From Actinomycetota bacterium (GTDB lineage: Bacteria > Actinomycetota > Humimicrobiia > Humimicrobiales > Humimicrobiaceae): a DNA stretch of 59,029 nt. The stretch covers positions 1 through 59,029 of the forward strand of contig JBNJCV010000001.1 of assembly GCA_051744245.1 (NCBI GenBank), read 5' to 3'. Positions 22,770 through 39,679 of this stretch are shown one piece after another; positions within the stretch are counted from its first letter, which is position 1, and each line of letters starts with the position of its first letter. The translations under genes were made by a program, and so were the position numbers. The notes under the pieces are model-generated. The model saw only the letters and a program-made list of their open reading frames with translations, had not been told where the DNA came from and ran no database searches.

Positions 22770-22818
22770 TTGACTTAGGAAGCTTTAGCTGTATAATTAT
22801 GATGATAATCATTATCAT
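22770..22818 (+). promoter_or_regulatory. Sigma-70-like promoter with an overlapping perfect Fur-type box
   Basis: TTGACT (22770-22775), 16 nt, TATAAT (22792-22797). ATGATAATCATTATCAT (22802-22818) follows as a perfect 8-1-8 palindrome containing TGATAATcATTATCA, which matches the 7-1-7 Fur consensus. It lies 16 nt upstream of the ATG at 22834. Confidence 0.6.
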
Positions 22819-22833
22819 TATCATTTTAACTAT

Positions 22834-23736
22834 ATGGAAAGTAAAAAAGAAATACTGTCTTTTCTGGTTTCAAGCCTTAAAAGCAATCAGGTTAAACTTA
22901 CCTCCACAAGAAAAGCCATCCTTGAGGTACTGGCAGAAAAAAATGAAGAAATGAATGTTGACCAGATTCATCTCTTATCCCACAAAAAGAATTCAAATAT
23001 TGGAATAGCAACTATCTACAGGAATATAAATATGTTAAATGAAATGGGTCTGGTTTCAAAACGGTTTGAGGAAGGCTCTGACAAGGCAGTATTTAGCTTG
23101 ACCGGTAAACTAAAAAAAAGTTTTTCCAGTGAAAAGAAAGGAATCAAAAATAAGGTTTCACCATCCAGTCACCGTAAAACTGCAGATGGTGAAATTTTGA
23201 GAATACAGGGGCAATTAAATGAAGCCTTGAATGATTTAAATAAAATAAAAATGGAAAAGGAGCTAGCATTGGAAAATGTAATAAATGATTTCACGAAATT
23301 GGACAAAATACTCGAAGAACACAATTTTGAAAAAAACAATTTAATCCAGATACTTTTAGATGTGCAGGACCAGTATAACTGGCTGCCCAAGCATACCTTG
23401 CTTTATATAGGAAATAAAATGGAGGTTCCGCTGACCAATATTTACAGCATAGCTTCATTTTATAAGTTCTTTAATCTGGAACCCCGGGGCAGACACTCAA
23501 TTCTGGTATGTACCGGAACTGCTTGCCATGTAAGGGGGTCAATGAGTTTGCTTCAGAGGATTGTAAACGTGCTAGGGGTAAATCCAGGGGATACCACTAA
23601 AGACTTAAGGTTTACCTTGGATACAGTTAATTGTCTGGGCTGTTGTGCCCTTGGGCCGGTTATGATGGTAGATGAAAAGTATTACAGCAATCCTTCAGCC
23701 AAACAGCTTAGAAAAATATTAAAAAATTATAATTAA
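22834..23736 (+). CDS. Fusion protein: Fur-type winged-helix DNA-binding domain, linker, and NuoE/HndA-type thioredoxin-like [2Fe-2S] subunit
   Basis: The N-terminus (TSTRKAILEVL..NIGIATIYRNINMLNEMGLV) resembles the DNA-binding domain of the Fur ORF at 27329. The C-terminus (LIQILLDVQDQYNWLP..VCTGTACHVRG..CLGCCALGPVMMV) is NuoE-like. Single uninterrupted 300-aa frame. Confidence 0.8.
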   Translation: MESKKEILSFLVSSLKSNQVKLTSTRKAILEVLAEKNEEMNVDQIHLLSHKKNSNIGIATIYRNINMLNEMGLVSKRFEEGSDKAVFSLTGKLKKSFSSEKKGIKNKVSPSSHRKTADGEILRIQGQLNEALNDLNKIKMEKELALENVINDFTKLDKILEEHNFEKNNLIQILLDVQDQYNWLPKHTLLYIGNKMEVPLTNIYSIASFYKFFNLEPRGRHSILVCTGTACHVRGSMSLLQRIVNVLGVNPGDTTKDLRFTLDTVNCLGCCALGPVMMVDEKYYSNPSAKQLRKILKNYN

Positions 23737-23747
23737 GGGGACTGGCA

Positions 23748-25652
23748 ATGGATACTAAAGTAAAAACTTTAAAAGACTTAGAAAAAATAAAATCGGATCA
23801 TATTAAGGATAGCGGATTAGACGGCAAGGACAAAAAGTACAAGGTAACTGTTCATATGGGGACCTGTGGCATTGCTTCAGGAGCTGATAAGATAAAGGAG
23901 CAGGCAGAAGAAAATATAAAGAAAAGCAATTTAAAAAACATTATTTTTACCACTTCGGGCTGCATAGGGTTTTGCTCTGGCGAGCCCATGCTAACAGTGG
24001 AAGAAGCAGGCGGAGAGGCTTATACCTACTGTAATCTTGACAAGGAGAAGGTGGACTTAATTTTTGAAGAGCACCTTGTTGGAGGAGAAGTAGCAGATAG
24101 CCTTGAACCTATTAACGAGAATTCCAACCTACCGGATTTTTACAAGTATCAGAAAAGGATAATTTTAGGCAATAATTCAAAAATTGACCCTAAGAGTATT
24201 GGCGACTATATAAAAATAGGCGGCTATGGAGCACTTGCTAGCGTATTGAAGGACAAGAGCCCTGATGAAGTTATCGGGGAAGTCAAAAAATCCGGCCTCA
24301 GGGGAAGAGGTGGAGGCGGTTTCCCTACTGGCTTGAAATGGGAATTTACCAGGAAAGCAAAGGGTCAGCCAAAATATGTAATAGTTAATGCTGATGAAGG
24401 TGATCCAGGCGCTTATATGGATAGGGGAATACTGGAAGGAAATCCCCACAGTGTGCTGGAAGGCCTTATAATAGGGGCTTATGCCATTGGGGCAAGCCAG
24501 GGCTATATATATGTAAGGCAGGAATATCCCCTGGCAGTTGAACATATAAAAGAAGCCATAAGGCAGGCCAGGGAATATGGTTTTTTAGGTGAAGACATAC
24601 TAGGTTCCGGATTCAGTTTTGATGTAAAGGTACATAGGGGAGCAGGAGCTTTTGTTTCCGGGGAGTCCAGTGCTCTCATATCTGCTATAGAGGGAAAGGT
24701 AGGAGAGCCAAAGCTTAAATATATCCATACTTCCGAAAGCGGGCTTTGGGGCAAGCCTACCAATTTGAATAATGTTGAAACCTGGGCCAATATCCCCTTA
24801 ATAATGGGAAAAGGATGGGAATGGTTTAAAAACATTGGGACTGCTGGCAGCAGCGGAACAAAAATATTTTCCCTAGTGGGAAAAGTTAAAAATACCGGCC
24901 TTGTAGAAGTCCCCATGGGCACCACCTTGAAGGATATTATATTTAAAATAGGTGGAGGAATGCAGGACGATAGAAGATTCAAGGGTGTACAGACCGGAGG
25001 GCCTTCGGGAGGAGTTATTCCTGAAGAGCTTATTGGCCTACCTGTAGATTTTGACGAGTTAGATAAAGCTGGGTCCATGATGGGAAGTGGAGGAATGATA
25101 GTAATGGATGAGAGTTCCTGCATGGTAAATGTTGCCCATTATTTTATAAAATTCTTAACTGATGAATCATGCGGAAAGTGCGTTCCCTGCCGTGAAGGAT
25201 TGAGGCAGGCTCTGAATATTTATGAAAGGATCATTAGTGGAGAAGGAAAAGAAGAGGACCTAAAGCTGCTTTCAGATCTAGCGGTACTGCTCCGGGAAGG
25301 GGCAATGTGTGCACTGGGAAGCACGGCACCTAACATAATTCTTACCACCTTAAAATACTTTAGGGAAGAATATGAATCACACATATATTACAATATGTGT
25401 CCAGCATTGGTATGCAAACCGCTTATAAGATATGAAATAGATGAGCGTAGGTGCAGCGGTTGTGGGATTTGCGCTGAATCCTGTCCTGCTGATGCCATAG
25501 TAGGGGAGACTAAAAAACCTCACCGTATAGACCAGGATTTATGCACAACCTGCGGCACCTGTATAGAAGTATGCCCTGAGAAGTTTTCTGCTATAAGCAA
25601 AAAAACGGGGGCTAAACAGGAAGCAGCAAAAAAAGAAAAAGTAAATAAATAG
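23748..25652 (+). CDS. NuoF/HydB/HndC-like NAD(P)H-binding flavo-FeS subunit
   Basis: N-terminal thioredoxin-like 2Fe-2S domain (GTCGIASG..GCIGFCSGEP). NuoF core (GLRGRGGGGFPTGLKW, ESCGKCVPCREG). C-terminal 2x[4Fe-4S] (CSGCGICAESCP, CTTCGTCIEVCP). Confidence 0.9.
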   Translation: MDTKVKTLKDLEKIKSDHIKDSGLDGKDKKYKVTVHMGTCGIASGADKIKEQAEENIKKSNLKNIIFTTSGCIGFCSGEPMLTVEEAGGEAYTYCNLDKEKVDLIFEEHLVGGEVADSLEPINENSNLPDFYKYQKRIILGNNSKIDPKSIGDYIKIGGYGALASVLKDKSPDEVIGEVKKSGLRGRGGGGFPTGLKWEFTRKAKGQPKYVIVNADEGDPGAYMDRGILEGNPHSVLEGLIIGAYAIGASQGYIYVRQEYPLAVEHIKEAIRQAREYGFLGEDILGSGFSFDVKVHRGAGAFVSGESSALISAIEGKVGEPKLKYIHTSESGLWGKPTNLNNVETWANIPLIMGKGWEWFKNIGTAGSSGTKIFSLVGKVKNTGLVEVPMGTTLKDIIFKIGGGMQDDRRFKGVQTGGPSGGVIPEELIGLPVDFDELDKAGSMMGSGGMIVMDESSCMVNVAHYFIKFLTDESCGKCVPCREGLRQALNIYERIISGEGKEEDLKLLSDLAVLLREGAMCALGSTAPNIILTTLKYFREEYESHIYYNMCPALVCKPLIRYEIDERRCSGCGICAESCPADAIVGETKKPHRIDQDLCTTCGTCIEVCPEKFSAISKKTGAKQEAAKKEKVNK

Positions 25653-25661
25653 GGGTGAAAA

Positions 25662-26264
25662 ATGGAAGATAATAATAAAATTAATATGGTTATAAATGAC
25701 GAGCCGGTTACAGTAGAAAAAGGAAATACCATCCTGGAGGCAGCACGGAACCTGGGAATAGACATACCTACAATTTGCCACCATGAGGCCCTCAAAGAAC
25801 ACGGGTCCTGCAGGTTGTGTATGGTTGAGATTAAGAGGAAGGGTAAATCAAAAATAGTAGCATCATGCGCTTATCCTGCAGAAGAAGGATTGGCAGTTTA
25901 TACTGACAGCTCAAAAGTGGAAAGTATAAGGAAAAAACTGGTAGAGCTTTATCTTGCTCTTTTCCCTTTTATTCCAGAGGTTAAGGAACTTGCAAAGAAA
26001 TATAATTTAACTGGCACAAGGTATACAAAACAAAATAACTATTGTATTTTATGCGGCCTATGTGTCAGGTATTGCAGTGAAGTGAAGAAAAATAATGCTA
26101 TTGGCTTTGTGGGAAGGGGAATTGATAAAATGGTAACATTTGTGCCTGATTCCTCTTATTTTAAACATTGTGAAAATTGCATGGAATGTGTTGATATCTG
26201 TCCTACCGGTGTATTTCCTTCAAATTATGGGCTAGAGCGTATACCGCAGCTTAGCGAAGATTAA
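25662..26264 (+). CDS. NuoG/HydA N-terminal-like FeS protein (2Fe-2S plus 4Fe-4S clusters), no catalytic domain
   Basis: 2Fe-2S (CHHEALKEHGSCRLCMVE..ASC), CILCGLCVRYC and CENCMECVDICP. The ORF ends at 200 aa and hairpins follow. Confidence 0.8.
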   Translation: MEDNNKINMVINDEPVTVEKGNTILEAARNLGIDIPTICHHEALKEHGSCRLCMVEIKRKGKSKIVASCAYPAEEGLAVYTDSSKVESIRKKLVELYLALFPFIPEVKELAKKYNLTGTRYTKQNNYCILCGLCVRYCSEVKKNNAIGFVGRGIDKMVTFVPDSSYFKHCENCMECVDICPTGVFPSNYGLERIPQLSED

Positions 26265-26460: not shown

Positions 26461-27198
26461 ATGAAAGATATAGCTATAGTATGTGATGTAATGAAAAATG
26501 AATTCCGGGATAGGGATAAGAACTTGCCATCAGATAATATGGATTTCATATTTTTAGAGCAGCACCTGCATGATGCTCCGGATAAAATGAGAGTTAGGCT
26601 GCAGGAAGAAATAGATAAAATAGATGATAGTTATGGGAGAATAATACTGGGCTATGGTTTGTGCAGCAATGGAGTTGTAGGCCTAAAGTCAGACCAGCAT
26701 GAAATAGTAATTCCAAAGGTTGATGACTGTATAAGCCTTTTTCTAGGCTCTAAAGAAAAGTATATAGAAGAATTTAAAAAAGATCCTGCTACATACTACC
26801 TGTGCAGGGGATGGATAGAATATGGAAGTGACCCTTATAGGGGGTACCTGGTCAATACTGGGCAGGAAGATAAGATTCCGGAAGGGTGGATAAGGAATAA
26901 GGAAAGGTATGGGAGAAAAATAAAGGATGAAGAAACTTCCAAATTCCTTATATCCCAAATGATGAGAAACTACAACCGGATTGTGCTGATAGATAACGGA
27001 GACCTGGAAGAAGTCCACGAGAAATATGCTAAAGATATGGTTAATTTTTTAAAGGAAATCCTGGGAAAGGAAATTAGCTTTGTAAAGATTAAGGGTTCCT
27101 CTGTATTGTTAAAAAAACTGTCCAATAAGGCTTGGGAAGACAGCAACTTTATTGTAATCAGTAAAGGCAAAAAGGTATCCAGGGAGGATTTTACCTAA
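26461..27198 (+). CDS. DUF1638-like protein
   Basis: 245 aa. The pattern (IVCDVM..FLEQHLHDAPDKMR..ILGYGLCSNG..DDCISLFLGS) matches my recollection of DUF1638, a family often found near corrinoid/methyltransferase genes. Confidence 0.65.
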   Translation: MKDIAIVCDVMKNEFRDRDKNLPSDNMDFIFLEQHLHDAPDKMRVRLQEEIDKIDDSYGRIILGYGLCSNGVVGLKSDQHEIVIPKVDDCISLFLGSKEKYIEEFKKDPATYYLCRGWIEYGSDPYRGYLVNTGQEDKIPEGWIRNKERYGRKIKDEETSKFLISQMMRNYNRIVLIDNGDLEEVHEKYAKDMVNFLKEILGKEISFVKIKGSSVLLKKLSNKAWEDSNFIVISKGKKVSREDFT

Positions 27199-27257: not shown

Positions 27258-27307
27258 TTGACTAACGGAAAAATACAATATATTATAATAGTAACAATTA
27301 TTACTAT
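27258..27307 (+). promoter_or_regulatory. Promoter-like hexamers plus a 20-bp near-perfect palindrome upstream of the Fur-family gene
   Basis: TTGACT (27258-27263), 17 nt, TATTAT (27281-27286). ATAGTAACAATTATTACTAT (27288-27307) follows with 9 of 10 pairs complementary. It lies 21 nt upstream of the ATG at 27329. Confidence 0.45.
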
Positions 27308-27328
27308 CATTTAGAAGGATTGTTACAA

Positions 27329-27787
27329 ATGGCAAGGGAAATAAAATATTGGGAAACTAAATTAAAAGAGCAGGGCTATAAATTCAGTACTCCCAGGAAG
27401 TTTATACTTAAGCTGTTGAGCGAAGAGAATAGGCTCCTTAGCGCCGATGACATTTACATGAAATTAAAAGAGATGGACTCTAGCATAGGCATTGCCACTG
27501 TATACAGAACACTAGATCTTCTTCACAGACTATCGCTTATATGCAAAATTAATGTGGGAACTGATAAGTCTTTATATATGTTATCCAAGAAATGCAAAGA
27601 GGAAGTATCTAATTATCTTATCTGTGAAAATTGCGGGAAAATTGTATTGAACAATAAATGTCTAAAAAGTGCTATAAAGATACGGCTTAAGGATGATGCA
27701 GAAAAAAATATCTATGATAACTGCAAGCTGAAGATAAATAATTTCCAGGTATTTTTTTCTGGCCTCTGTGACAAATGTTCTGAATAA
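27329..27787 (+). CDS. Fur-family transcriptional regulator, atypical (lacks the His-rich regulatory metal site)
   Basis: DNA-binding domain FSTPRKFILKLL..SIGIATVYRTLDLL and two CxxC pairs (CENCG, CDKCS). VSNYLIC occupies the position where Fur/Zur/PerR normally have HHDHLIC-type histidines. Confidence 0.8.
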   Translation: MAREIKYWETKLKEQGYKFSTPRKFILKLLSEENRLLSADDIYMKLKEMDSSIGIATVYRTLDLLHRLSLICKINVGTDKSLYMLSKKCKEEVSNYLICENCGKIVLNNKCLKSAIKIRLKDDAEKNIYDNCKLKINNFQVFFSGLCDKCSE

Positions 27788-28570: not shown

Positions 28571-30523
28571 ATGGAAAACCAGAAAAAATATCAAGTCAAA
28601 TTTCTTCCAACCAATAAAACAGCCACTTTTAAATACGGGTATAATTTAAGGCAAGCAATTCTTGATTCAGGCATAGAGATAGAATCTTCGTGTGGGGGCG
28701 TTGGCACTTGTGGCAAGTGCAGGGTCCAGATAAAGGAAGGAAAGCCAGAAACAAAAAAAAGCAAATTTATTTCGGAAACAGAAGAAAAAGAAGGCTTTGT
28801 TCTATCCTGCCTTACTAAAATTACGGATGACCTGGTGGTATTTATACCTGAACAGAAAAAGGCCAGGGCAATAATAGATAAGGGCAAACTAGCTGAATCT
28901 TCAGGAGTCTATGCAGCGGTAAGCAAGGATGAGTTTGAGGAAGCTGAAATTGATCCCTGGATTAAGAAGGCAGAACTTGAAGTGGAAGAGCCATCCCTAA
29001 GCTATGGGACTAGCGACCTTTACAGGTTTAAAAAAGCGGTAAAAGAAAAATTTGAAATAAAGGACTGCATTATCCCTATTGACGTTATAAGGGAGCTGCC
29101 AGACAAACTGAGAAAAGAAAATTGGAAAGTTACAGTTACCATAGACCTTAACCGGAAACTGGTTATGAACGTGGAGGCGGGCAAAAGCAGCGAAGAATTG
29201 TATGGGGTGGCATTAGACATTGGAACTACAACCATTGTGATGTATCTGGTTGACTTAGAGGATGGAAAAATTGTTGGAAGCAACTCTGAATACAATCCCC
29301 AGATCAGGTTCGGTGAGGACATTATAAATAGGATTGTATATGCCAACAAGGAGGACGGGCTAAAGAAGCTAAATGAAGTGGTAGTCGACTCTATAAATAA
29401 CCTTGTGTGGAGGCTTTTGCTTAACACCCATGTTGAGCCTGATAATATAGTTTCTATTGTGGTTTCTGGAAATTCTACCATGATGCACCTGTTTTACCGG
29501 GTGCCTCCTAAATATATAAGGGAAGAGCCTTATGTGACAGTGGCTAATAGGTTTTCTGACTGCCGGGCCAGGGAACTGGGGATAAAGCATGTCGGAAATG
29601 CTTTTGTGTTTGCCGTACAGGGGGTAGCAAGCTACCTTGGCGGGGATATCACTTCAGGAGTTCTTGCTACGGGAATGGGCAAAAAAAAGGACCTAGCCCT
29701 TTTTATAGATTTAGGCACAAATGGCGAGCTGGTAGTGGGAAACTCAGAGTGGATGATGGGTTGTTCATGCTCTGCTGGCCCTGCATTTGAAGGCGGGGGA
29801 GTAAAATGCGGAACCCGGGCAGTCGAAGGGGCTATCCAGAAAGTATGGATAGACCAGGAAACCTACAAAGCAGAGGTAGGGGTGATTGGCGGAGGAAAGC
29901 CCAGGGGAATATGCGGTTCCGGCCTTATCGATGTTATAGGGGAGATGTACCTGAAAGGGGTTATAGACAGAAAAGGGAAATTTAATAAAAATATCGGTAA
30001 CGAGTATCTAAAATGTGTTGAAAAGGATTGCCTGTATATCCTGGTTGACAGCAAGGACAGTGCAGACGGGAAAGAAATATATATAAGTGAAGTTGATATA
30101 GATAATTTGATGAGGGCTAAAGCGGCGGTTTATGCAGGGATAAAGACATTGCTGGAGGAAGTGGACTTAAGCGTTTATGACCTGGACAAAGTTTATTTAG
30201 CCGGGGGCTTGGGCAAGAAATTAAATATAGGGAATGCAGTGGTTATAGGAATGCTACCGGATATAAATGTAAATAAATATTACTTTTTGGGAAATACTTC
30301 TATTACTGGGGCATATCTGGGCTTGCTGTCATCTAAAAAATATACCGAAACTATTGAAATTGCTGATGCCCTTACCTATGTGGAATTAAGCGTTAACATG
30401 AAATTCATGGACAGGTATGTGGCAGGGCTTTTCTTCCCTTATACTGACCTTACAGATTTTCCAACGGTTGAAGAACTTATTTTTTCATTAGATAATAAAA
30501 ACAGGAGTAGAAAAGAAAAATAA
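28571..30523 (+). CDS. acsV: Corrinoid activation/regeneration protein (RACo/AcsV-type: 2Fe-2S ferredoxin plus ASKHA ATPase)
   Basis: N-terminal plant-type ferredoxin motif CGGVGTCGKCRV. ASKHA motifs are LDIGTTT and IDLGTNGE. 650 aa. Heads the acs cluster. Confidence 0.85.
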   Translation: MENQKKYQVKFLPTNKTATFKYGYNLRQAILDSGIEIESSCGGVGTCGKCRVQIKEGKPETKKSKFISETEEKEGFVLSCLTKITDDLVVFIPEQKKARAIIDKGKLAESSGVYAAVSKDEFEEAEIDPWIKKAELEVEEPSLSYGTSDLYRFKKAVKEKFEIKDCIIPIDVIRELPDKLRKENWKVTVTIDLNRKLVMNVEAGKSSEELYGVALDIGTTTIVMYLVDLEDGKIVGSNSEYNPQIRFGEDIINRIVYANKEDGLKKLNEVVVDSINNLVWRLLLNTHVEPDNIVSIVVSGNSTMMHLFYRVPPKYIREEPYVTVANRFSDCRARELGIKHVGNAFVFAVQGVASYLGGDITSGVLATGMGKKKDLALFIDLGTNGELVVGNSEWMMGCSCSAGPAFEGGGVKCGTRAVEGAIQKVWIDQETYKAEVGVIGGGKPRGICGSGLIDVIGEMYLKGVIDRKGKFNKNIGNEYLKCVEKDCLYILVDSKDSADGKEIYISEVDIDNLMRAKAAVYAGIKTLLEEVDLSVYDLDKVYLAGGLGKKLNIGNAVVIGMLPDINVNKYYFLGNTSITGAYLGLLSSKKYTETIEIADALTYVELSVNMKFMDRYVAGLFFPYTDLTDFPTVEELIFSLDNKNRSRKEK

Positions 30524-30525
30524 TT

Positions 30526-31284
30526 ATGGGTAAAAGCATAGCAGTAGCCGGAAAAGGCGGCACAGGAAAAACTACTATAAGCGGACTTCTTATAAGGAAT
30601 TTGGCTGATAATAATAAAGTTCCCATACTTGCCTTAGATGCAGATCCCAATTCAAATCTCAATGAGGTACTGGGGGTAGAGGTTAAGTCTACTGTAGGGA
30701 TGCTGCGGGAAGAGTTTAAAAAAAATGCCCCTAGGATGGCAAAGGGAATTTACAAAGATCAGCTGGTGGAGATGAACATACAGGAAGCTTTAGTGGAGAA
30801 TAAGAAATATGACCTTCTGGTAATGGGCAGGGGTGAAGGCCCGGGATGCTATTGTTATGCGAATTCACTGTTTAGGAAATATATAGAGATGCTGCAGGAT
30901 AATTATAATTTCATTGTTATGGATAATGAAGCGGGAATGGAGCATTTAAGCAGGAGAACTACCCAGGATATTGATTACCTGTTGATTGTTTCTGATCCTT
31001 CCCCCAGGGGGATTATGACGGCAGCAAGAATAAGGGACCTGGCTATGGACCTGGAACTGAAGGTAAAAGATATTTTTTTAATAGTAAACAGGGTAAAAGA
31101 TAAGTTGGATAAGAGATTAGAGGGGCAAATTGAGGACAATAATCTTAAGTTGCTCTCAGTGCTAAACTATGATGATGATATTTTTGAAATGGACATATCC
31201 TCAGGCTCTGTTTTTAGCCTGCCTGCTTCAAGCAGTTCTTTAGGCAAGTCTGAAGATATTTTAAAACAGTTGGATATTATATAG
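30526..31284 (+). CDS. cooC: CODH/ACS nickel-insertion ATPase CooC/AcsF
   Basis: Deviant Walker A GKGGTGKTT and CxC metal motif GPGCYCYAN. Confidence 0.9.
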   Translation: MGKSIAVAGKGGTGKTTISGLLIRNLADNNKVPILALDADPNSNLNEVLGVEVKSTVGMLREEFKKNAPRMAKGIYKDQLVEMNIQEALVENKKYDLLVMGRGEGPGCYCYANSLFRKYIEMLQDNYNFIVMDNEAGMEHLSRRTTQDIDYLLIVSDPSPRGIMTAARIRDLAMDLELKVKDIFLIVNRVKDKLDKRLEGQIEDNNLKLLSVLNYDDDIFEMDISSGSVFSLPASSSSLGKSEDILKQLDII

Positions 31285-31408
31285 TTTAATTAATCAAAAT
31301 GACTGAACTTTTTTATAAAAGATGATAAAATGATTTAATTTGTAAGATAACTTACAACGCATTGTGTATTATGTAACTATTTAGTAACAATATAAAAGGG
31401 GGAGAAAA

Positions 31409-32344
31409 TTGAGTTTTAAATTCCCAAAAAATGAATATGCAGGCAAGATCGCATCTGTAAATTTAAAGTCCGGAACAGTGGTAGGTGGTGATGAAGCCTT
31501 ACCTTTTTACAGTTTTGAGGGTAATATTCCAAACAAGCCTATAATTGCGATGGAAGTTTATGACAGCAAACCGGAGGGCTGGCCTGAAAGCGTGGATAAG
31601 TATTTTAATGATGTTTACGATGATCCGGTAAAATGGGCAAAAAAATGTATAGATGAGTATGGGGCAGAGAGTATCTGCTTGCAGCTTAAAAGTGTTAATC
31701 CGGATTCTGGGGATATGAAACCCCAGGAAGCTGCTGAAATTGTAAAAAAGGTAAGTGATGCTATAGAAAAGCCCTTGATTGTATATGGGGATGGTCCCAT
31801 GGAAAAAATTGAAGATGTAATGAAAAAAGTATCAGAGGTAAACCAGGATTCCGATATCCTTATAGGATGGGTGGAAGAAGATTACTATAAGACAGTGGCA
31901 GCAGCTTGTATGGGCTATAATAATAATGTCATATCTGTAAATTCAATGGATGTAAACATTGCCAAGCAGCTTAATATCCTGTTAACCCAGCTGGGGCTTC
32001 CAGCAGAAAGAATTGTGATGGACCCATCAACTGCCAGCATAGGATATGGTATTGAATATTGTTATTCCAGCATGGAAAGGCTCAAAATTGCTGCATTGCT
32101 CCAGGACGATAAAATGACCCAAATGCCATTGATAGTTAATTTAGCCCCCCAGGTTTGGAAGGTAAAGGAAGTAAAAGAAAGTGAAGAGGATTATCCTGAG
32201 TGGGGTGATCTGGAACAAAGAGGCATAAACTGGGAATCTATTTCTGCAATGGCGACTCTTGTATCGGGTGCAAATATTGTGGTTATGAGGCACCCTAAGG
32301 CTGTGAGCATGGTAAAAGAAGTTATAAATAATTTAATACAATAA
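31409..32344 (+). CDS. acsD: Corrinoid iron-sulfur protein small subunit (delta)
   Basis: 311 aa, TTG start with AAAGGGGGAG RBS. AcsD-like TIM-barrel sequence, positioned directly upstream of acsA/acsB. Confidence 0.85.
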   Translation: MSFKFPKNEYAGKIASVNLKSGTVVGGDEALPFYSFEGNIPNKPIIAMEVYDSKPEGWPESVDKYFNDVYDDPVKWAKKCIDEYGAESICLQLKSVNPDSGDMKPQEAAEIVKKVSDAIEKPLIVYGDGPMEKIEDVMKKVSEVNQDSDILIGWVEEDYYKTVAAACMGYNNNVISVNSMDVNIAKQLNILLTQLGLPAERIVMDPSTASIGYGIEYCYSSMERLKIAALLQDDKMTQMPLIVNLAPQVWKVKEVKESEEDYPEWGDLEQRGINWESISAMATLVSGANIVVMRHPKAVSMVKEVINNLIQ

Positions 32345-32360
32345 TTTTAAGTATAGAAGG

Positions 32361-34319
32361 ATGGTGCAAGGCACGATGAAATCCAAAGATAAAGATAAAA
32401 AACAAAGAAGTGAAGATAAGGCGGTAAATGAGATTCTGGAAAACTTGGAAGAAGGAGTGGAAACTGTTTTTGACCGCTCTGATTCCATGAAATGCTGCCC
32501 TATTGGTTCGGGCGTTTCCGGAATTTGCTGCAAGAATTGCTCAATGGGACCTTGCAGGGTCAGGGAAGGAAAAACTGGCTTATGCGGGGCGACCATGGGA
32601 ACAATAGCAGCCAGGAATCTGGCAAGGCATATTGCGGCAGGAGCAGCTGCCCACTCTGACCATGGTAGAGACCTCGCTGTGCTGTTAAAAGATGTGGCTG
32701 AAGGTAATGCAGAGGGGCTTAGGATAAAAGATGAGATGAAGCTTTTAAGGTTTGCTAAAAACCTTGGAATAGAAACAAAGGACAAAGAAGTAAACGAAAT
32801 AGCCATAGAGGCTGCCGAAAAGTCACTTTCGCTATTTGGCCAGCAGGAAGGCGAGATAGACTTAATAAAGATTGCTCCCAAGAAAAGGCAGGAGAAGTGG
32901 AAAAAATATAATATTGTTCCCAGGGGTGTGGACAGGGAGGTTGTTGAAACCCTCCACCGTACTCACATGGGTGTGGATCAGGATGCAGAACATATTTTAG
33001 ACCATGCTCTGCGCAATGCATTATCTGATGGCTGGGGCGGTTCAATGATTGCCACGGAGATAACAGATATACTTTTTACTACACCAAAAGCATTACCGGC
33101 AAAAACTAATTTAGGCATGCTGTCTGAAGATGAAGTAAATATAGTTGTGCATGGCCATGAACCCACCTTGTCTGAAGTTATTGCAGAGATGGCCAATAAT
33201 GAAGAGATGGTTAAATATGCAAAAGAAAAAGGGGCTAAAGGAATTAATGTTGTGGGTATATGCTGTACAGCCAATGAAGTGCTCATGAGGCAGGGCATTG
33301 CCCCTATCGGAAATTTCTTGTCACAGGAGCTGGCCATCATGACTTCGGCAGTAGAGGCTATGGTGGTTGACATACAATGCATAATGCAGTCTATAAGCAA
33401 GGTGGCAGAGAAATACCACACAAAATTAATTACCTCATCTGCAAAGTGCAAGATACCCGGGGCAACCCATATGGAATTTGATGAAAAGAAAGCCCCGACT
33501 ATTGCCAAGGAAATCATAAAGAATGCAATCGATAACTTTAAAAATAGAAAAGAACCAAAAATTCCCCAGGTTACATCAGACCTTGTTGCAGGGTTTTCCC
33601 ATGAGTATATTAGATATATGCTGGGAGGCAGGTTTAGGGAATCATTCAGGCCTTTAAATGATGGAATAATAGATGGAAGGATACAGGGCGTGGTAGCTGT
33701 TGTGGGCTGCAATAATGCAAGGCATCCCCAGGATAAGTACCATAACTTTTTGACCAGGGAACTTATAAAGCGGGATTATTTGGTAGTTCAGACAGGCTGC
33801 GGCGCATTGGCTTCTGCAAAGTGTGGCCTGATGATGCCTGAAGCAATGGAAGAAGTTGGTGACGGCTTGAGGTCAATTTGTGAAGCAGTAGGTATACCTC
33901 CGGTACTGCATCTCGGCTCTTGTGTGGATAATTCAAGAATACTTACTATAGTTTCTGAAGTGGTAGAAGAAGGGGGACTGGGCGAAGACATAAGCGACTT
34001 GCCGGTGGCAGGAATTGCCCCTGAATGGATGAGCGAGAAAGCATTATCCATTGGCTCCTATTTTGCAGCCAGCGGAGTTTATGTGGCTTTTAGCGGAGAG
34101 CCCATACCTGTTACTTCCAGCCAGGAAGTGGTTGATATAATGACCAAGGGCTGGGACCAGAAATTCGGAGGAATGCTGGAGTACGTGCCTGATATTGAAG
34201 AGTTATTAAATAAAGTAATAAATCATATCCAAGCTAAAAGAAAAGCGCTAAAAATTGATGTTAAGAAAGAAAGAGTGCTTTTCGACATGGAAGCAAGGAG
34301 GGAATTAGGAAATGTCTAA
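32361..34319 (+). CDS. acsA: Carbon monoxide dehydrogenase catalytic subunit
   Basis: N-terminal Cys motifs (MKCCPIGSGVSGICCKNCSMGPCR, GLCGA). C-cluster region motifs are HGHEP, GICCTANE, VGCNN and GSCVDN. An alternative start exists at 32376. Confidence 0.93.
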   Translation: MVQGTMKSKDKDKKQRSEDKAVNEILENLEEGVETVFDRSDSMKCCPIGSGVSGICCKNCSMGPCRVREGKTGLCGATMGTIAARNLARHIAAGAAAHSDHGRDLAVLLKDVAEGNAEGLRIKDEMKLLRFAKNLGIETKDKEVNEIAIEAAEKSLSLFGQQEGEIDLIKIAPKKRQEKWKKYNIVPRGVDREVVETLHRTHMGVDQDAEHILDHALRNALSDGWGGSMIATEITDILFTTPKALPAKTNLGMLSEDEVNIVVHGHEPTLSEVIAEMANNEEMVKYAKEKGAKGINVVGICCTANEVLMRQGIAPIGNFLSQELAIMTSAVEAMVVDIQCIMQSISKVAEKYHTKLITSSAKCKIPGATHMEFDEKKAPTIAKEIIKNAIDNFKNRKEPKIPQVTSDLVAGFSHEYIRYMLGGRFRESFRPLNDGIIDGRIQGVVAVVGCNNARHPQDKYHNFLTRELIKRDYLVVQTGCGALASAKCGLMMPEAMEEVGDGLRSICEAVGIPPVLHLGSCVDNSRILTIVSEVVEEGGLGEDISDLPVAGIAPEWMSEKALSIGSYFAASGVYVAFSGEPIPVTSSQEVVDIMTKGWDQKFGGMLEYVPDIEELLNKVINHIQAKRKALKIDVKKERVLFDMEARRELGNV

Positions 34320-36492
34320 AGTTATAGCAACCAGTGCCATTAAAGGCGCGCATAAAATTGTCAACAAGGCAGAAGAAAGGTTAAAGGAGGTTATAGAGGA
34401 AAAAGGTGAAGACCAGAAATTGGAATTCCCCGATACTGGCTATTTTTTACCAATAATTTACAGCATGGCTGGAATTAAAGTAGAAAAACTTGGCGATTGC
34501 CATGAAGTAATTACAGAAGCAAAAAATTTGCTTCCCCAGGTTCCAGGCGACAGGATCTGGATTCCTTATCTGGGGGGCACCCTGGATGCAGGGATTGCCA
34601 CACTGTGGGCTGAAGAAATTATTGAGGCTATAAAATATTTAGATGACCCTCCTCCTGAGGAAGGTATCTGGCTAGGAGCGGCTGAAGATAAAATAATAAG
34701 GGAACGTGGTATTGAATTTGTAGATGGAACCGCCCCTGGTTTTGCGGCTTGTGTTGGCGCTGCCTCTAGCAATGAGATGGCAGTCCAGATAGCAAGAGAG
34801 CTCCAGGAGAAAAATATTTATGTTTTTATAAGCGGGTCAACTAATGGCGTATCCATGGCAGAACAGCTAGCAGAAGAGGGAGTGGACCTTGGATGGGAAA
34901 CCAGGTTGGTGCCTTTTGGAAAAGATATAACTGCAACCATTTATTCCCTTGGTTTTGCAGCCAGGGCGGCGATGAGCTTTGGAGGCGTGCAGCCAGGCGA
35001 TTACAGGAGGATGCTGCTTTACAATAAGACCAGGGTATTTGCTTTTGTACTGGCATTGGGTGAAGTTGATGATGAAAAATATGCAAATGCGGCTGGCGCT
35101 ATAAATTTTGGCTTCCCCACAATTGCTAATACCTCCATACCGGAAATACTGCCCAGGGGAGTTTGTACTTATGAACATGTAGTCTCAAATATAGATGAAG
35201 AGGAAATGGTAACCAAGGCAATTGAAGTCAGAGGGCTTAAGGTTACTGTTGAAAAGGTTGATGTCCCTGTTCCATTTGGTCCTGCATTTGAAGGTGAGAG
35301 GGTAAGAAAAGAAAATACATATGTGGAATTTGGTGGAAATAAAAGTGATGCTGTTGAATTGCTGGTTATGGCAGATTCATCCAAAGTGGAAGATGGAAAA
35401 ATCGAAGTCATAGGGCCTGAAGTAGATGATGCAAAAGAAGGAGAAGCCCTTCCACTTGGTATACTGGTAGAAGTATCCGGAAGGAAGATGCAGGAAGATT
35501 TTGAGCCGGTTATGGAAAGGCAGATCCATTACTTTCTAAATTACCCCTCAGGGGTATTCCATATGGGCCAGAGGGATATATCCTGGGTCAGGTTCTCAAA
35601 AGATGCAGTAAATAACGGTTTTAAAATAAGGCATATCGGAACAGTGGTCCATGCTAAAATGCATTCAGATTTTGGAAAGATATTGGATAAGGTACAGGTA
35701 AAAATTTATACCAATCCTGAAGATGTTTTAGCCTTACAGAAAAAAGCAAGAAAGATATTTAAGACTAGGGATGAGCGTATGGGAGCCCTAACCGATGAGG
35801 CTGTAGATACTTTTTACTCATGCACCTTATGCCAGTCATTTGCTCCCAATCACGTGTGTGTTGTGTCTCCTGAAAGGCCAGGGCTTTGCGGCGCTTATAA
35901 CTGGCTTGATTGCAGGGCTGCCTATGAAATTAATCCTGCAGGCCCCAATCAGCCGGTTAAAAAAGGCGAGACTATTGAAGAAGAACTTGGTATATGGAAA
36001 GGGGTAAATGAGTTTGTATACAAGGCTTCAAACCAGAGTCTGGAATCATTTTCTGCATATTCTATGATGAAGGACCCAATGACTTCATGCGGGTGCTTTG
36101 AAGTTATAGCTACCATCCTTCCTTCAACTAATGGAATTATGGCCGTAAACAGGGAACACGGGGGAATGACCCCTTGTGGAATGAAGTTTTCAACGATAGC
36201 CGGAATGGTTGGTGGCGGAATACAGACCCCGGGCTTTATAGGTATTAGCAAGTTCTTTATAGGGTCAAAGAAATTCATAAGGGCTGATGGAGGATTAAAA
36301 AGGCTGGTATGGATGCCCAAGGAATTAAAAGAAGAGATAAGGGATTTACTTGAAGAGAGGGCCAAAGAAATAGGCATGGAAGATTTAGTAGATAAAATTG
36401 CTACAGAAGAGGAAGCCCAGAGTGAGGAAGAAGTGCTGGAGTGGGCCCAGAAAGTAAACCACCCTGCTTTGGAAATGGAACCAATGATGTAA
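34312..36492 (+). CDS. acsB: CO-methylating acetyl-CoA synthase (A-cluster subunit)
   Basis: 726 aa. A-cluster ligands occur in CTLCQSFAPNHVCVVSPERPGLCGA and the Cys-Gly-Cys motif MTSCGCFE. Overlaps the acsA stop by 8 nt. Confidence 0.95.
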   Translation: MSKVIATSAIKGAHKIVNKAEERLKEVIEEKGEDQKLEFPDTGYFLPIIYSMAGIKVEKLGDCHEVITEAKNLLPQVPGDRIWIPYLGGTLDAGIATLWAEEIIEAIKYLDDPPPEEGIWLGAAEDKIIRERGIEFVDGTAPGFAACVGAASSNEMAVQIARELQEKNIYVFISGSTNGVSMAEQLAEEGVDLGWETRLVPFGKDITATIYSLGFAARAAMSFGGVQPGDYRRMLLYNKTRVFAFVLALGEVDDEKYANAAGAINFGFPTIANTSIPEILPRGVCTYEHVVSNIDEEEMVTKAIEVRGLKVTVEKVDVPVPFGPAFEGERVRKENTYVEFGGNKSDAVELLVMADSSKVEDGKIEVIGPEVDDAKEGEALPLGILVEVSGRKMQEDFEPVMERQIHYFLNYPSGVFHMGQRDISWVRFSKDAVNNGFKIRHIGTVVHAKMHSDFGKILDKVQVKIYTNPEDVLALQKKARKIFKTRDERMGALTDEAVDTFYSCTLCQSFAPNHVCVVSPERPGLCGAYNWLDCRAAYEINPAGPNQPVKKGETIEEELGIWKGVNEFVYKASNQSLESFSAYSMMKDPMTSCGCFEVIATILPSTNGIMAVNREHGGMTPCGMKFSTIAGMVGGGIQTPGFIGISKFFIGSKKFIRADGGLKRLVWMPKELKEEIRDLLEERAKEIGMEDLVDKIATEEEAQSEEEVLEWAQKVNHPALEMEPMM

Positions 36493-36525
36493 TAAAATTT
36501 GCAAATACGAAATAAGGAGTGAGCA

Positions 36526-37875
36526 ATGGCTTTAAGCGGTTTAGAAATATTTAAAAAACTTCCTAAAACTAATTGTAAGGATTGTGGTTTTCCTACCTGC
36601 TTGGCTTTTGCAATGCAGCTTGCTGCAGGCAAAGTTGAGCTGGAAAAATGTCCCCATGTTTCAGAAGAGGCAAAGGAAGAATTAGAAGAAGCATCGCAGC
36701 CTCCCATACTTAAGGTTGAGGTTGGCAGCGGCGATGATGCATTTGTGGTGGGTGAAGAGAATGTACTTTTCAGGCATGATAGAACTTTTGTGAACCAGAA
36801 TGCATTTGCCCTAAATATTGATGATGATCTCCCGGAAGACGAGATAGAAAAACTGGTAAAAAAAGTAAATGAAACAGAATATGAGAGAGTTGGGCAGATA
36901 TTAAAAATTGACTCTATCTGTATAAGGAACAATTCAAAAGACAGTGGAAAATTTAAGGAAGTAGTTAAAAAAATAAATTCTATTACTTCAAAACCTTTAA
37001 TTCTCATATCTGAGGATGCAGCTGTTTTGGGAGATCTTGCAGAAGAGCTTAAAGAAAAGAAGCCATTACTACATGCAGCTACCAAAGATACGGCAGATGA
37101 TTTTATAAAGATTGCCAATGATACTGGATGCCCCATTGTAGCCAGGGGGGAAACTTTTGAAGATATAATGGCTATAACTGAGAAGATGAGAGAAGCAGGT
37201 GTAAAGAATTTAGTTATAGATATAGGCAAAAGGGACCTAAAAGATGACTTTTTCAACCAGATTGGGCTAAGGACTGCGGCTATAAAGAAAAAGAACAGGT
37301 TGTTTGGGTATCCCACAATTGTATTTCCCAATGAAATGGCGGAAGATCCTTTGATGGAAACCCTGACTGCTTCTATTTTTGTAGCAAAATATGGCTCTAT
37401 TATAGTTATATCCAGTGCTGAGCCGCACAATATTTATCCGTTGCTGGTATACAGGCAAAACATTTACACAGATCCAAGGCAGCCAATGCAGGTTGAGCAG
37501 AAGATTTATGAAATTGGAAGCCCGGATGAAAATTCTCCTGTGCTTATAACCACGAATTTCTCCCTCACCTATTTTATAATCTCGGGGGAAATTGAAAACA
37601 GTAAAGTGCCCAGCTGGCTCCTGGTAATGGATGTGGAAGGACAGTCAGTGCTGACTGCCTGGGCAGCAGGCAAATTTATACCGGAGCTAATTGCCCAGTT
37701 TATAAAGAAGAGCGGCATAGAAGATAAAGTAAAAACCAGGGAGTTAATTATCCCGGGATATGTGGCACAGCTTCAAGGAGAGCTGGAAGATGAGCTGGAA
37801 GGAGAATGGAAAGTTATTGTAGGCCCCAGGGAAGCAGGGGAAGTTCCCAAATACCTGAAAGAATATGCTTCCTGA
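36526..37875 (+). CDS. acsC: Corrinoid iron-sulfur protein large subunit (gamma)
   Basis: N-terminal 4Fe-4S motif CKDCGFPTCLAFAMQLA..CP, 449 aa, with the corrinoid-binding C-terminal half. Confidence 0.92.
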   Translation: MALSGLEIFKKLPKTNCKDCGFPTCLAFAMQLAAGKVELEKCPHVSEEAKEELEEASQPPILKVEVGSGDDAFVVGEENVLFRHDRTFVNQNAFALNIDDDLPEDEIEKLVKKVNETEYERVGQILKIDSICIRNNSKDSGKFKEVVKKINSITSKPLILISEDAAVLGDLAEELKEKKPLLHAATKDTADDFIKIANDTGCPIVARGETFEDIMAITEKMREAGVKNLVIDIGKRDLKDDFFNQIGLRTAAIKKKNRLFGYPTIVFPNEMAEDPLMETLTASIFVAKYGSIIVISSAEPHNIYPLLVYRQNIYTDPRQPMQVEQKIYEIGSPDENSPVLITTNFSLTYFIISGEIENSKVPSWLLVMDVEGQSVLTAWAAGKFIPELIAQFIKKSGIEDKVKTRELIIPGYVAQLQGELEDELEGEWKVIVGPREAGEVPKYLKEYAS

Positions 37876-37952
37876 CTTCCATATATGATTGTAACAAGTT
37901 AGTAATTATCATATAATTTATTTTATTAATATTGTTAAGGAAAGGAGCAAAT

Positions 37953-39650
37953 TTGAAAAGCGACATTGAAATAGCACAAGCGGCAGAGATGAGGAATATA
38001 GGAGAAATTGCTGAATTGGTAGACCTGGATGAAAAATATCTGGAGCTATACGGGGATTATAAGGCGAAGGTTGACTTGTCAGTGTTAGATGCCTTAAAGG
38101 ATAGGCCAAATGGCAAGTATATCGATGTTACGGCAATAACCCCTACCCCCCTGGGGGAAGGGAAGACCGTAACCACCATAGGCCTTAGCATGGCATTGAA
38201 TAAGATTGGCAAGAAAACAGTAACCTGTATAAGGCAGCCATCGTTGGGGCCTGTCTTTGGTATTAAAGGCGGTGCAGCTGGAGGAGGAAATTCACAGGTG
38301 CTTCCCATGGAGGACTTTAACCTGCACCTTACCGGGGATATCCATGCAGTTGGGGTAGCTCATAATCTGCTGGCAGCATTCCTTGATACACACATTATGA
38401 AAGGGAATGAACTGGACATTGACCCCTTTAGCATTTCTCTTAACAGGGTAGTTGATGTTAGTGATAGGGCCCTGAGAAATATAATTGTAGGGCTGGGGGG
38501 AGAGCTTAATGGGATTCCCAGGGAAACAGGTTATGATATTACTGTGGCTTCTGAGGTTATGGCCATACTAGCCTTGACCACAGGGCTGAAAGATTTAAGG
38601 AAAAAGCTTTCCAGGATGACTATAGGTTCTACCAGTGACGGCAAGGCAGTTACAGCTGAAGATCTCAAATGTGCCGGTGCAATGACGGTGTTGCTTAAGG
38701 ATGCAATAAAGCCGACTTTGCTCCAAACAATTGAACATACTCCTTGTTTTGTTCATGCTGGACCGTTTGCAAATATTGCCCATGGCAATTCTTCAATATT
38801 GGCTGACCTTATCGCCACTAAACTCGGTGATTATGTGGTAACAGAGAGCGGCTTTGGGGCAGATATTGGTGCAGAGAAATTCTTTAACATTAAATGCAGA
38901 TATAGTGGCCTGAAGCCAGATGCTGTAGTTATAGTGGCAACAGTTAGAGCTCTAAAGATGCATGGAGGCGGATTTGAGTTTGTTCCTGGTCAAGGTGTTG
39001 ACGAGGAAAAGATGAATACCCCCAATGTAGAAGCAGTTCGGAAAGGCTGCGAAAATTTAGAGAAAATGATAGAAAATGTTAAGATGCATGGGATACAAGC
39101 AGTAGTGGCAATAAACCACTTTGCTGCTGATAGCCAGGAAGAAATAGATGCCATAAAAGAGAGGGCAATTGCAGCAGGTGCTGAGGATGCTGTTGTCAGC
39201 AAGGTATGGCTAAAAGGAGGAGAAGGCGGAAAAGAGCTGGCAGAGGCAGTTGCAAAAGCTGCTGAAAAACCAGGTGAATTTAAATTCCTTTATCCGCTTG
39301 ACTGGCCAATAAAGAAGAAAATTGAAACCATAGCAACAAAGATCTATGGCGCAGATGGGGTTAACTTTTTGCCCAAAGCTGAGAAAATGATTGATACATA
39401 TACAAGACAAGGATTTGATAAGCTCCCCATTTGCATGGCAAAAACCCACCTGTCACTTAGCCATGAACCAACATTAAAAGGAAGGCCAACTAATTTTACA
39501 GTTCCCATTAGGGATGTCAGGGCATCTGTAGGGGCTGGATTCTTATACCCATTATTGGGTGAGATGAGAACCATGCCTGGATTGCCAAAAGTTCCAGCCG
39601 GAACAAAAGTTGATATAGATGATGATGGGAACATAGTTGGATTGTTTTAA
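37953..39650 (+). CDS. fhs: Formate--tetrahydrofolate ligase
   Basis: LKSDIEIAQAA N-terminus and P-loop PTPLGEGKTVTTIGL. TTG at 37953 lies 5 nt after AAAGGAG; the ORF track starts at 37932. Confidence 0.95.
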   Translation: MKSDIEIAQAAEMRNIGEIAELVDLDEKYLELYGDYKAKVDLSVLDALKDRPNGKYIDVTAITPTPLGEGKTVTTIGLSMALNKIGKKTVTCIRQPSLGPVFGIKGGAAGGGNSQVLPMEDFNLHLTGDIHAVGVAHNLLAAFLDTHIMKGNELDIDPFSISLNRVVDVSDRALRNIIVGLGGELNGIPRETGYDITVASEVMAILALTTGLKDLRKKLSRMTIGSTSDGKAVTAEDLKCAGAMTVLLKDAIKPTLLQTIEHTPCFVHAGPFANIAHGNSSILADLIATKLGDYVVTESGFGADIGAEKFFNIKCRYSGLKPDAVVIVATVRALKMHGGGFEFVPGQGVDEEKMNTPNVEAVRKGCENLEKMIENVKMHGIQAVVAINHFAADSQEEIDAIKERAIAAGAEDAVVSKVWLKGGEGGKELAEAVAKAAEKPGEFKFLYPLDWPIKKKIETIATKIYGADGVNFLPKAEKMIDTYTRQGFDKLPICMAKTHLSLSHEPTLKGRPTNFTVPIRDVRASVGAGFLYPLLGEMRTMPGLPKVPAGTKVDIDDDGNIVGLF

Positions 39651-39679
39651 TATTTTTTTAATAACTTTTATTTTAAGAG

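Follow-up and report, generated by a model that had tools for sequence, protein, structure and literature searches.

A 59,029-nucleotide stretch of DNA from an Actinomycetota bacterium (assembly GCA_051744245.1, contig JBNJCV010000001.1, positions 1 to 59,029; hereafter the window) carries a gene in which a Fur-type DNA-binding domain (DBD) is fused, in a single open reading frame (ORF), to a HydC/BfuC-type (NuoE-like) iron-sulfur (FeS) subunit of a predicted electron-bifurcating flavoenzyme. This gene (22834..23736, + strand) stands at the head of its operon, directly behind a promoter in which a perfect Fur box, here called box A, lies over the expected transcription start. On balance, we lean towards the reading that the fused Fur head, which is predicted to bind DNA, reads box A, and that the subunit would thereby autoregulate its own operon as a 'trigger' subunit. 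This reading is preferred because the DNA-contact residues of the head are conserved, the operator keeps its position at every orthologous locus, the types of head and operator co-vary, and a neighbouring full-length Fur-family paralogue (Fur2) has a separate operator. Autoregulation is thus a plausible interpretation that the comparative data strengthen, short of proof.

Architecture of the fusion protein

The gene encodes 300 amino acids (aa) with matches to two Pfam families, confirming the single uninterrupted frame, the Fur-family winged helix at the N-terminus, and the missing metal-sensing and dimerisation half of Fur that had been proposed in a preliminary description of the window. 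Pfam FUR (PF01475) matches residues 18-90 with E = 9.4e-13 and 48.8 bits (gathering cut-off 23.1 bits), and the match covers profile positions 2-74 of 121, which correspond to the DNA-binding half only. Pfam 2Fe-2S_thioredx (PF01257) matches residues 157-299 at profile positions 2-144 of 145 (E = 1.7e-48), and the profile search suggested in that description therefore recovers both domains. Likewise, the NCBIfam matches consist of HoxE/NuoE models at the C-terminus and Fur/PerR models at the N-terminus, all of them under their equivalog cut-offs.

An AlphaFold2 (AF2) model built from 69 homologues, together with the profile matches and homologue lengths, divides the protein into four parts, all encoded on the + strand. 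Residues 2-89 (22837..23100) form the Fur-type winged-helix DBD, with a predicted local distance difference test score (pLDDT) of 85-90, and are also identified by Pfam and by matches to Protein Data Bank (PDB) sequences. Residues 90-116 (23101..23181) make up a disordered Lys/Ser-rich tether (pLDDT <50 for residues 94-116) whose length differs widely between homologues. Residues 117-162 (23182..23319) form one long conserved helix, hydrophobic at positions 121/124/128/131/135/138 and 146/149-150/153/156/160, which amounts to a regular heptad a/d stripe and marks a putative coiled-coil dimerisation or transducer element. Residues 163-300 (23320..23733) constitute the thioredoxin-like [2Fe-2S] domain of the HydC/BfuC type, identified by Pfam and Foldseek and modelled with the NuoE fold at residues 167-297. 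The relative placement of the domains is undefined in the model (predicted template modelling score, pTM, 0.44), as is expected because the domains are tethered. The Lys/Ser-rich, coiled-coil-like linker of about 55 aa in the preliminary description is therefore composed of two distinct parts, a disordered tether of ~25 aa (~91-116) and the conserved 46-residue helix (117-162).

The same long helix is common to relatives that carry ribbon-helix-helix (RHH)-like or receiver (REC) heads (see below), and tblastn alignments of relatives begin at query residues 119-135 of the fusion. The Fur C-terminal dimerisation domain with its regulatory metal sites (His/Glu/Asp) is not found in the fusion, in which residues 91-162 are tether and helix without a His-rich motif. 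CxxC pairs such as the two that make up a structural Zn site are likewise missing outside the [2Fe-2S] domain, and C226, C231, C267, and C271, all inside PF01257, are the sole invariant Cys residues. The conserved coiled-coil-like helix probably stands in for the Fur dimerisation domain.

Conservation of the DNA-contact residues

The best matches of the head among PDB sequences are Fur and PerR. Across the 69 sequences, T23, R26, A59, Y62, and R63 of the fusion are invariant and T60 is kept in at least 90%, and position 21 is K or R in the 23 sequences displayed. In crystal structures of MgFur bound to its operator, DNA is contacted by Lys15 (minor-groove shape readout), Thr17 and Arg20 (backbone), Thr54, Tyr56 (thymine contacts), and Arg57 (bidentate to a conserved G) (PMC4506495). 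Fusion residues K/R21, T23, R26, T60, Y62, and R63 align with MgFur K15, T17, R20, T54, Y56, and R57, respectively. All six DNA-contact positions of Fur are thus conserved or invariant in the fusion family, and the protein has the N-terminal winged helix with DNA-contact residues by which members of the Fur family are recognised. An alignment with Escherichia coli Fur shows that the recognition helix of the fusion reads A-T-(V/I)-Y-R, as in Fur, versus A-T-V-Y-N in PerR. The Arg/Asn position of this helix sets the preference for a Fur box or a PerR box.

A conserved Fur box at the promoter of the fusion operon

The operon is preceded by a sigma-70-type promoter, TTGACT-16-TATAAT (22770..22797, + strand; 11 of 12 positions matched), which is followed by the operator (22800..22825, + strand). 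The operator comprises the perfect 7-1-7 Fur box TGATAATCATTATCA at 22803-22817 and tandem ATCATT hexamers (22808-22825), with box A being extended by three such hexamers to position 22825 and the ATG following at 22834. Both the promoter and the perfect box had already been picked out in the preliminary description, and both stand. The operator begins 3-6 nucleotides (nt) past the -10 element, over the expected transcription start, a placement that is predicted to be that of a repressor site.

Within the window, the only match to the 7-1-7 box with two or fewer mismatches is box A together with its own overlapping hexamer shift. It should be noted that box A in the window alone is not significant, the window being AT-rich and at least two matches occurring in 17 of 100 shuffles; its significance derives from its conservation across orthologous loci. 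Orthologues show a common layout in which TTGACA-17-TATAAT is followed by a few bases, TGATAATCATTATCA, and then two to five more hexamers, and box A usually lies 20-55 nt 5' of the fusion start codon. When the 250 nt upstream of the fusion gene were scanned with corrected start codons, a Fur box with no more than two mismatches was present in all 30 loci (15 perfect, 9 with one mismatch, and 6 with two). The density of boxes is ~200-fold higher in these upstream regions (65 matches in 7.5 kb) than elsewhere (15 in 361 kb). At one mismatch or fewer, box A occurs almost only at the fusion promoter in the 369 kb around the fusions, and no such match was found in 600 kb of loci whose BfuC homologue lacks a Fur head.

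Several minor features of these promoters may be added. No recognisable Shine-Dalgarno sequence precedes the ATG in the window (22826-22834; …CATTTTAACTATATG), and some orthologues have AGGA or GGGA. If transcription starts ~7 nt past the -10 element, the 5' untranslated region would be ~30 nt long and consist almost entirely of operator. In one subclade, extra Fur/PerR-like boxes with two mismatches (e.g., TGATAAATATTATAA and TAATAATCATTATAA) lie ~1 kb upstream of the fusion (L012 at 6894 and 7005, L014 at 6993, and L016 at 6944). The box in L014 stands in front of a YkuD L,D-transpeptidase gene, which was identified in that locus only. These boxes may represent further regulon members or chance matches in AT-rich sequence.

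Distribution of the fusion

A search of 5.8 billion proteins returned 3397 relatives, of which the best 120 (43-97% identity) all combine PF01475 and PF01257; the fusion therefore counts at least 120 protein clusters, as drawn from the best 120 of the 3397 relatives. Among GTDB species genomes, ~30 loci contain the full-length fusion, all but one of them from Actinomycetota metagenome-assembled genomes (MAGs). The remaining locus is titled 'uncultured bacterium', one of the fusion MAGs is named Candidatus Humimicrobiaceae (class Humimicrobiia), and the hosts of the fusion are Humimicrobiia-like. The search for orthologous fusions that had been recommended thus yielded ~30 loci, and a neighbourhood with BfuB-type and small BfuA-like genes is retained in them. 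When residues 1-160 were used as a query against a library of representatives at 50% identity, approximately one fusion representative (P0075) was recovered, the other matches being ordinary Fur proteins (E ~1e-8) or coiled-coil noise. This collapse to about one representative indicates that the fusion family is one tight clade.

Source records annotate members of the family as 'hypothetical protein' or 'NAD(P)H-dependent oxidoreductase subunit E'. The full-text literature searched yielded no account of NuoE/HydC proteins with a Fur, RHH, or REC head, in agreement with the initial impression that such a fusion had not been described. One locus departs from the usual arrangement: in L034 (8001-9145; Candidatus Humimicrobiaceae MAG SMAG_U7536), the fusion ORF matches query residues 1-229 only and runs into a BfuA-like gene, BfuB being missing, which is probably a deletion or a misassembly.

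Relatives with other heads, or none

Outside the fusion clade, the closest BfuC relatives are more than plain subunits. Those of Dehalococcoidia and Syntrophobacteria are proteins of ~240 aa in which an N-terminal module of ~50 residues, with the pattern K-x-x-(F/M)-V-G-V-R...Q...L...L-Q...S-K-(S/T)-(E/D)-x-L-L-x-G-L-E, precedes the same long helix. Five of nine such heads match Pfam RHH_3, and others match TraY or NikA, all of which are RHH families, although every match is sub-threshold (best E = 0.0012). The AF2 model of this head is coil-helix-helix, as for an RHH monomer, with modest pLDDT, and a profile search against PDB sequences gave no match.

Just after the TTGAC-type promoter of the RHH-like-headed BfuC genes lies a palindrome, GTTAAACnGTTTAAC, which is present at 16 loci in two phyla. 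Elsewhere in ~1 Mb, only two near-matches to GTTAAACnGTTTAAC, each with two mismatches, were found. RHH-like-headed loci with the palindrome ~20-40 nt 5' of the start are L032, L033, L036-L040, L043, L045, L046, L048, L050-L052, L054, L056, and L074 (e.g., L037 7795-7809). A different operator at the same position thus goes with a different head. The pairing would seem to be a further DBD-BfuC design for autoregulation, independent of the first. As a whole the family is large, with 7065 matches at E<=1e-10, a total that includes ordinary NuoE/BfuC relatives, and its members are annotated as NuoE only.

A further group of relatives carries a receiver domain (PF00072) joined through a coiled coil to BfuC. 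These proteins of 383-394 aa occur in Myxococcales and Desulfobacterales MAGs (L035 7401-8552, L053 3558-4730, and L060 1816-3000) and contain no DBD; neither the Fur box nor GTTAAACnGTTTAAC was found at their loci. Such an arrangement would place a subunit of a bifurcating enzyme under two-component control, and it suggests that the shared helix is also able to relay signals the other way, from the head towards the enzyme. Headless BfuC genes (150-165 aa) likewise have neither operator upstream; they include that of L031, an AT-rich Actinomycetota MAG in which the BfuC trio lies inside an acs cluster. An N-terminal extension found in Dehalococcoidia (L062 type) was considered as a third type of DBD and dropped, as it looks like a partial duplication of an internal NuoE helix pair and has only a weak match to a winged helix-turn-helix (wHTH).

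Fur2 and its separate operator

The full-length Fur-family paralogue Fur2 (27329..27787, + strand; Pfam) is genomically linked to the fusion operon in at least 12 loci, where it lies downstream, divergent upstream, or convergent. Its true start is probably the ATG at 27329 rather than the TTG at 27320. In the window it has its own promoter, TTGACT-17-TATTAT, and operator (27258..27306, + strand), with box B, TAGTAACAATTATTACTA, at 27289-27306. Unlike 7-1-7 Fur boxes, box B is an even-centred palindrome; it lies directly past the -10 element of Fur2 and was found in 13 loci.

Fur2 has the normal Fur dimer architecture and the same ATVYR recognition helix as the fusion. It lacks all His ligands of the regulatory metal sites of Fur, HHH-L-I-C being changed to S-N-Y-L-I-C and the other His positions replaced as well. 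Two CxxC motifs are retained along with four more conserved Cys residues, and these might form an FeS or redox site. With two Fur-type heads and two operators, the simplest assignment would be that each protein reads the operator at its own promoter.

A box-B-like site with two mismatches, TAGTAACAATTATTAAAA, is located in L003 (15172-15189) between CooC and an AcsD-like gene, a hint that acs genes of this genome may likewise be under the box-B regulator. In the window, no counterpart was present at three or fewer mismatches.

Which protein reads box A?

The alternative that survives best is that box A is read by a separate Fur-family protein, which could be Fur2 or a canonical Fur that senses iron and is encoded elsewhere. 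In that case the operon would belong to an iron or redox regulon as an ordinary member, and the fused wHTH would have other DNA as its target (box B, for example, in a two-regulator circuit) or act as a competitor. We regard this as possible but rather unlikely. Several observations speak for it or weigh against autoregulation by the fused head. The fusion is without the Fur dimerisation domain, and dimerisation through its helix is deduced from sequence periodicity only. The canonical 7-1-7 geometry of box A suits a canonical Fur dimer. Fur2, with its ATVYR helix and normal dimer architecture, adjoins the operon in many loci, and a crossed assignment, in which Fur2 would read box A and the fusion box B, is possible. 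Box A is moreover the Fur box in general use among bacteria: at least 120 unrelated metagenome contigs contain the 21-mer TGATAATCATTATCATTATCA without a mismatch, and of the 80 returned, ~5 are fusion loci and several others lie beside ordinary fur genes. This metagenome-wide scan led us to reject the 21-mer as an operon-specific marker, since a generic bacterial Fur box cannot identify its reader, and box A could thus be bound by a canonical Fur encoded in another part of these genomes. Covariation of operator variants with DBD residues carries no information, both being nearly invariant. The parallel with the RHH-like family is tempered by the sub-threshold profile matches, the modest pLDDT, and the missing PDB match of that head described above.

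On the other hand, Fur2 has a different conserved operator of its own and no His ligands for iron sensing. Box A is gone where BfuC has no Fur head, including in the AT-rich Actinomycetota relative, and at one mismatch or fewer it is almost confined to the fusion promoter in the 369 kb around the fusions. The RHH-headed homologues display the pattern of 'own head, own operator' with no need of a second regulator. In addition, repression of an FeS-rich enzyme by holo-Fur when iron is plentiful would run counter to the usual iron-sparing logic.

It is improbable, in our view, that the Fur-derived wHTH no longer binds DNA and instead mediates protein-protein contacts or assembly within the Bfu complex (for example by docking a partner enzyme), the box being unrelated. 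Winged helices are often reused for protein contacts, and relatives with a receiver domain at the same position show that the N-terminus tolerates modules that do not bind DNA. However, the invariant residues of the head are those that contact DNA in Fur-DNA crystal structures, and a docking function would not be expected to keep exactly these; a matching operator is also present at the gene's own promoter in every locus. Finally, the chance that a sequencing error, a missed stop, or a misassembly joined two adjacent genes (a fur fragment and nuoE) is negligible, as the linker and helix are in frame, the helix is conserved, and the same fused frame recurs in ~30 independent MAG assemblies and at least 120 clusters at 43-97% identity, a recurrence that also disposes of the concern over a frameshift raised at the outset.

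A proposed mode of autoregulation

We infer from these data the fused domain as the reader of box A, dimerisation through the helix, repression, and the nature of the signal sensed. In the favoured reading of autoregulation by the fused head, the long helix would bring two subunits together, whether by itself or as part of the oligomeric enzyme. Bfu enzymes have a dimer-of-trimers organisation, as seen in HydABC structures, and this organisation could provide an alternative route to pairing. Two Fur heads on flexible tethers would then meet the 7-1-7/hexamer array over the transcription start and repress the BfuCBA operon.

With a [2Fe-2S] enzyme domain in place of the Fe2+ site of Fur, the state of the FeS domain and flavoenzyme (whether the cluster is loaded, whether the subunit is assembled or free, and whether it is oxidised or reduced) may set the amount of dimer that is competent to bind DNA. 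Inputs from the cluster, from assembly, or from redox state are plausible because the [2Fe-2S] enzyme domain has replaced the Fe2+ site. Cluster occupancy could provide iron-sparing control of an FeS-rich enzyme, the balance of free and assembled subunit could provide stoichiometric feedback, and a redox- or NADH-linked movement of the BfuC domain could be transmitted to the head.

A broader proposal, which we advance tentatively and place a little short of an even chance, is that subunits of the BfuC/HydC clade double as transcription factors or signalling targets. Lineages would independently have attached heads through the common coiled-coil helix: Humimicrobiia-like Actinomycetota a Fur-wHTH, Dehalococcoidia and Syntrophobacteria an RHH-like domain, and Myxococcales and Desulfobacterales a REC domain. 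An operator of its own would accompany each head that binds DNA, and in the Fur-headed form a bifurcating enzyme tied to the Wood-Ljungdahl pathway would directly gate its own transcription through its cluster, redox, or assembly state.

Comparison with known systems

The fusion unites an enzyme subunit and a DBD in a single chain, and an operator lies at the promoter of its gene; this is the arrangement of trigger enzymes. The closest functional parallel is PutA, a flavoenzyme that bears an RHH domain at its N-terminus, has an operator in its own regulon, and binds DNA according to its redox state. The likeness of the fusion to PutA and to trigger enzymes such as BirA and NadR lies in the operator in the gene's own promoter, through which the state of the enzyme can set expression. 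The fusion differs from PutA in that the DBD is of Fur type and is carried by a small FeS subunit of a multi-subunit Bfu-type flavoenzyme, not by the catalytic polypeptide; it has no sequence relationship to PutA and is not a member of that family. The RHH-like-headed BfuC relatives may share the fold of the PutA DBD.

With canonical Fur, PerR, and Zur, the fusion shares the N-terminal winged helix, the same DNA contacts, and the 7-1-7/hexamer Fur box over the promoter. These regulators have their own C-terminal dimerisation domain, regulatory metal sites, and structural Zn CxxC pairs, whereas the fusion has the tether, the heptad helix, and the [2Fe-2S] domain instead. With HydC, BfuC, StnA, and NuoE, it shares the C-terminal 140 residues, the fold, the four Cys ligands, and the BfuB and small BfuA partners (40-45% identity to HydC/BfuC). 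Unlike the fusion, the known structures of these subunits (in HydABC, NfnABC, StnABC, BfuABC of W-aldehyde oxidoreductase, and complex I) contain neither an N-terminal DNA-binding or receiver domain nor a long N-terminal helix. IscR, SoxR, RsrR, NsrR, and Rex resemble the fusion in the concept of coupling cluster or redox state to DNA binding, and Rex controls hydrogenase and fermentation genes in anaerobes. These five are nevertheless dedicated regulators of unrelated folds, whereas the fusion, to judge from its operon, is the sole E-type subunit that its flavoprotein can draw on.

If the proposal is correct, the fusion would represent both a new class of trigger enzyme and a new way to build a Fur-type regulator, and the expression of an FeS-rich redox enzyme would be coupled to its own status. 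Should the fused domain bind the operator, it would be the first Fur-type regulator with an iron-sulfur enzyme domain, in place of a metal site, as its input, and the enzyme would be the first electron-bifurcating (Bfu/HydBC-type) enzyme to report its own state to transcription. The co-variation of head and operator across three head types would come as a surprise to specialists in Fur, FeS sensing, or electron bifurcation. The fusion also offers a handle on how low-potential electron flow is regulated in uncultured acetogenic or Wood-Ljungdahl Actinomycetota, Dehalococcoidia, and Syntrophobacteria, and it points to an annotation gap, as hundreds of proteins bear no label beyond 'NAD(P)H-dependent oxidoreductase subunit E'. 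The idea of autoregulation is readily testable with small soluble domains and the three operators defined here (box A, box B, and the RHH box).

The enzyme and its operon

The C-terminus of the fusion has the NuoE/HydC/BfuC fold, in which a helical bundle leads into the thioredoxin-like part, and its four Cys cluster ligands. Foldseek comparison of this domain with PDB structures places Thermotoga maritima HydC, BfuC of the W-aldehyde oxidoreductase, StnA, and NfnABC-C at the top (40-45% identity), and respiratory NuoE and NDUFV2 come next with ~30% identity; the Foldseek probability is 1.0 for HydC, BfuC, and NuoE. The complete thioredoxin-like [2Fe-2S] domain noted in the preliminary description is therefore present, but its nearest relatives are HydC, BfuC, and StnA, and not respiratory NuoE.

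The operon order is fusion BfuC, BfuB, and small BfuA. The fusion gene is directly followed, both in the window and in almost all loci with a sufficiently long contig, by a gene for a BfuB/HydB-type flavoprotein (23748..25652, + strand; 634 aa; Pfam). Its product has the domain order of Bfu-type B subunits, with an N-terminal [2Fe-2S] thioredoxin-like domain, an FMN/NADH domain, and two C-terminal [4Fe-4S] clusters, and residues 32-616 align full-length with NfnABC-B, StnB, and HydB (PDB matches with E from 1e-175 to 1e-210). The third gene of the trio, in all loci, encodes a small BfuA/HoxU-like FeS subunit (25662..26264, + strand; 200 aa) with [2Fe-2S] and 4Fe-4S domains and no catalytic module, according to Pfam; its best PDB match is 9mqx_A, the small NuoG-like subunit (BfuA) of the bifurcating W-aldehyde oxidoreductase.

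On the 3' side of Fur2 lies a Wood-Ljungdahl block comprising RACo, CooC, AcsD-like, CODH, ACS, AcsC-like, Fhs, and FolD genes, with a complete carbonyl/methyl branch at 28571-40603. In other fusion loci, the trio adjoins acs genes or a block with formate dehydrogenase (FDH), FdhD, and MobA. Based on the BfuB and BfuA matches and on these Wood-Ljungdahl, acs, or FDH neighbours, the enzyme is assigned, by prediction from sequence, to a BfuABC-type NADH/ferredoxin flavoenzyme module linked to C1 metabolism. The earlier assignment to an NADH/ferredoxin-linked flavoenzyme is thus upheld by the flavoprotein partner and the Wood-Ljungdahl neighbours and is refined to the Bfu/HydBC type, as distinct from a respiratory Nuo.

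The FDH block is best seen in L014 (11632-16100, minus strand), where it is convergent to the fusion operon and encodes FdhD, a MobA-like protein, and the 912-aa alpha subunit of a formate dehydrogenase, whose FeS domains at the N-terminus are NuoG-like; it is also present in L012, L016, and L021. Beside this block, NuoF-like matches occur in L012 and L021, with a NuoE-like match too in L012. FDH is a candidate catalytic partner of the Bfu-type modules in these four genomes.

Two further genes of the window lie outside the conserved core or at some distance from it. A DUF1638 gene (26461..27198, + strand) separates the small BfuA-like gene from Fur2; it was seen only in the window and in the 97%-identical locus L001, with Fur2 following directly after the BfuA-like gene in L002 and L003, and is an accessory gene. 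An RnfC-like flavoprotein with Complex1_51K, Fer4, and RnfC_N domains is encoded at 44364-45695 and might be part of an MTHFR or Rnf-type module.

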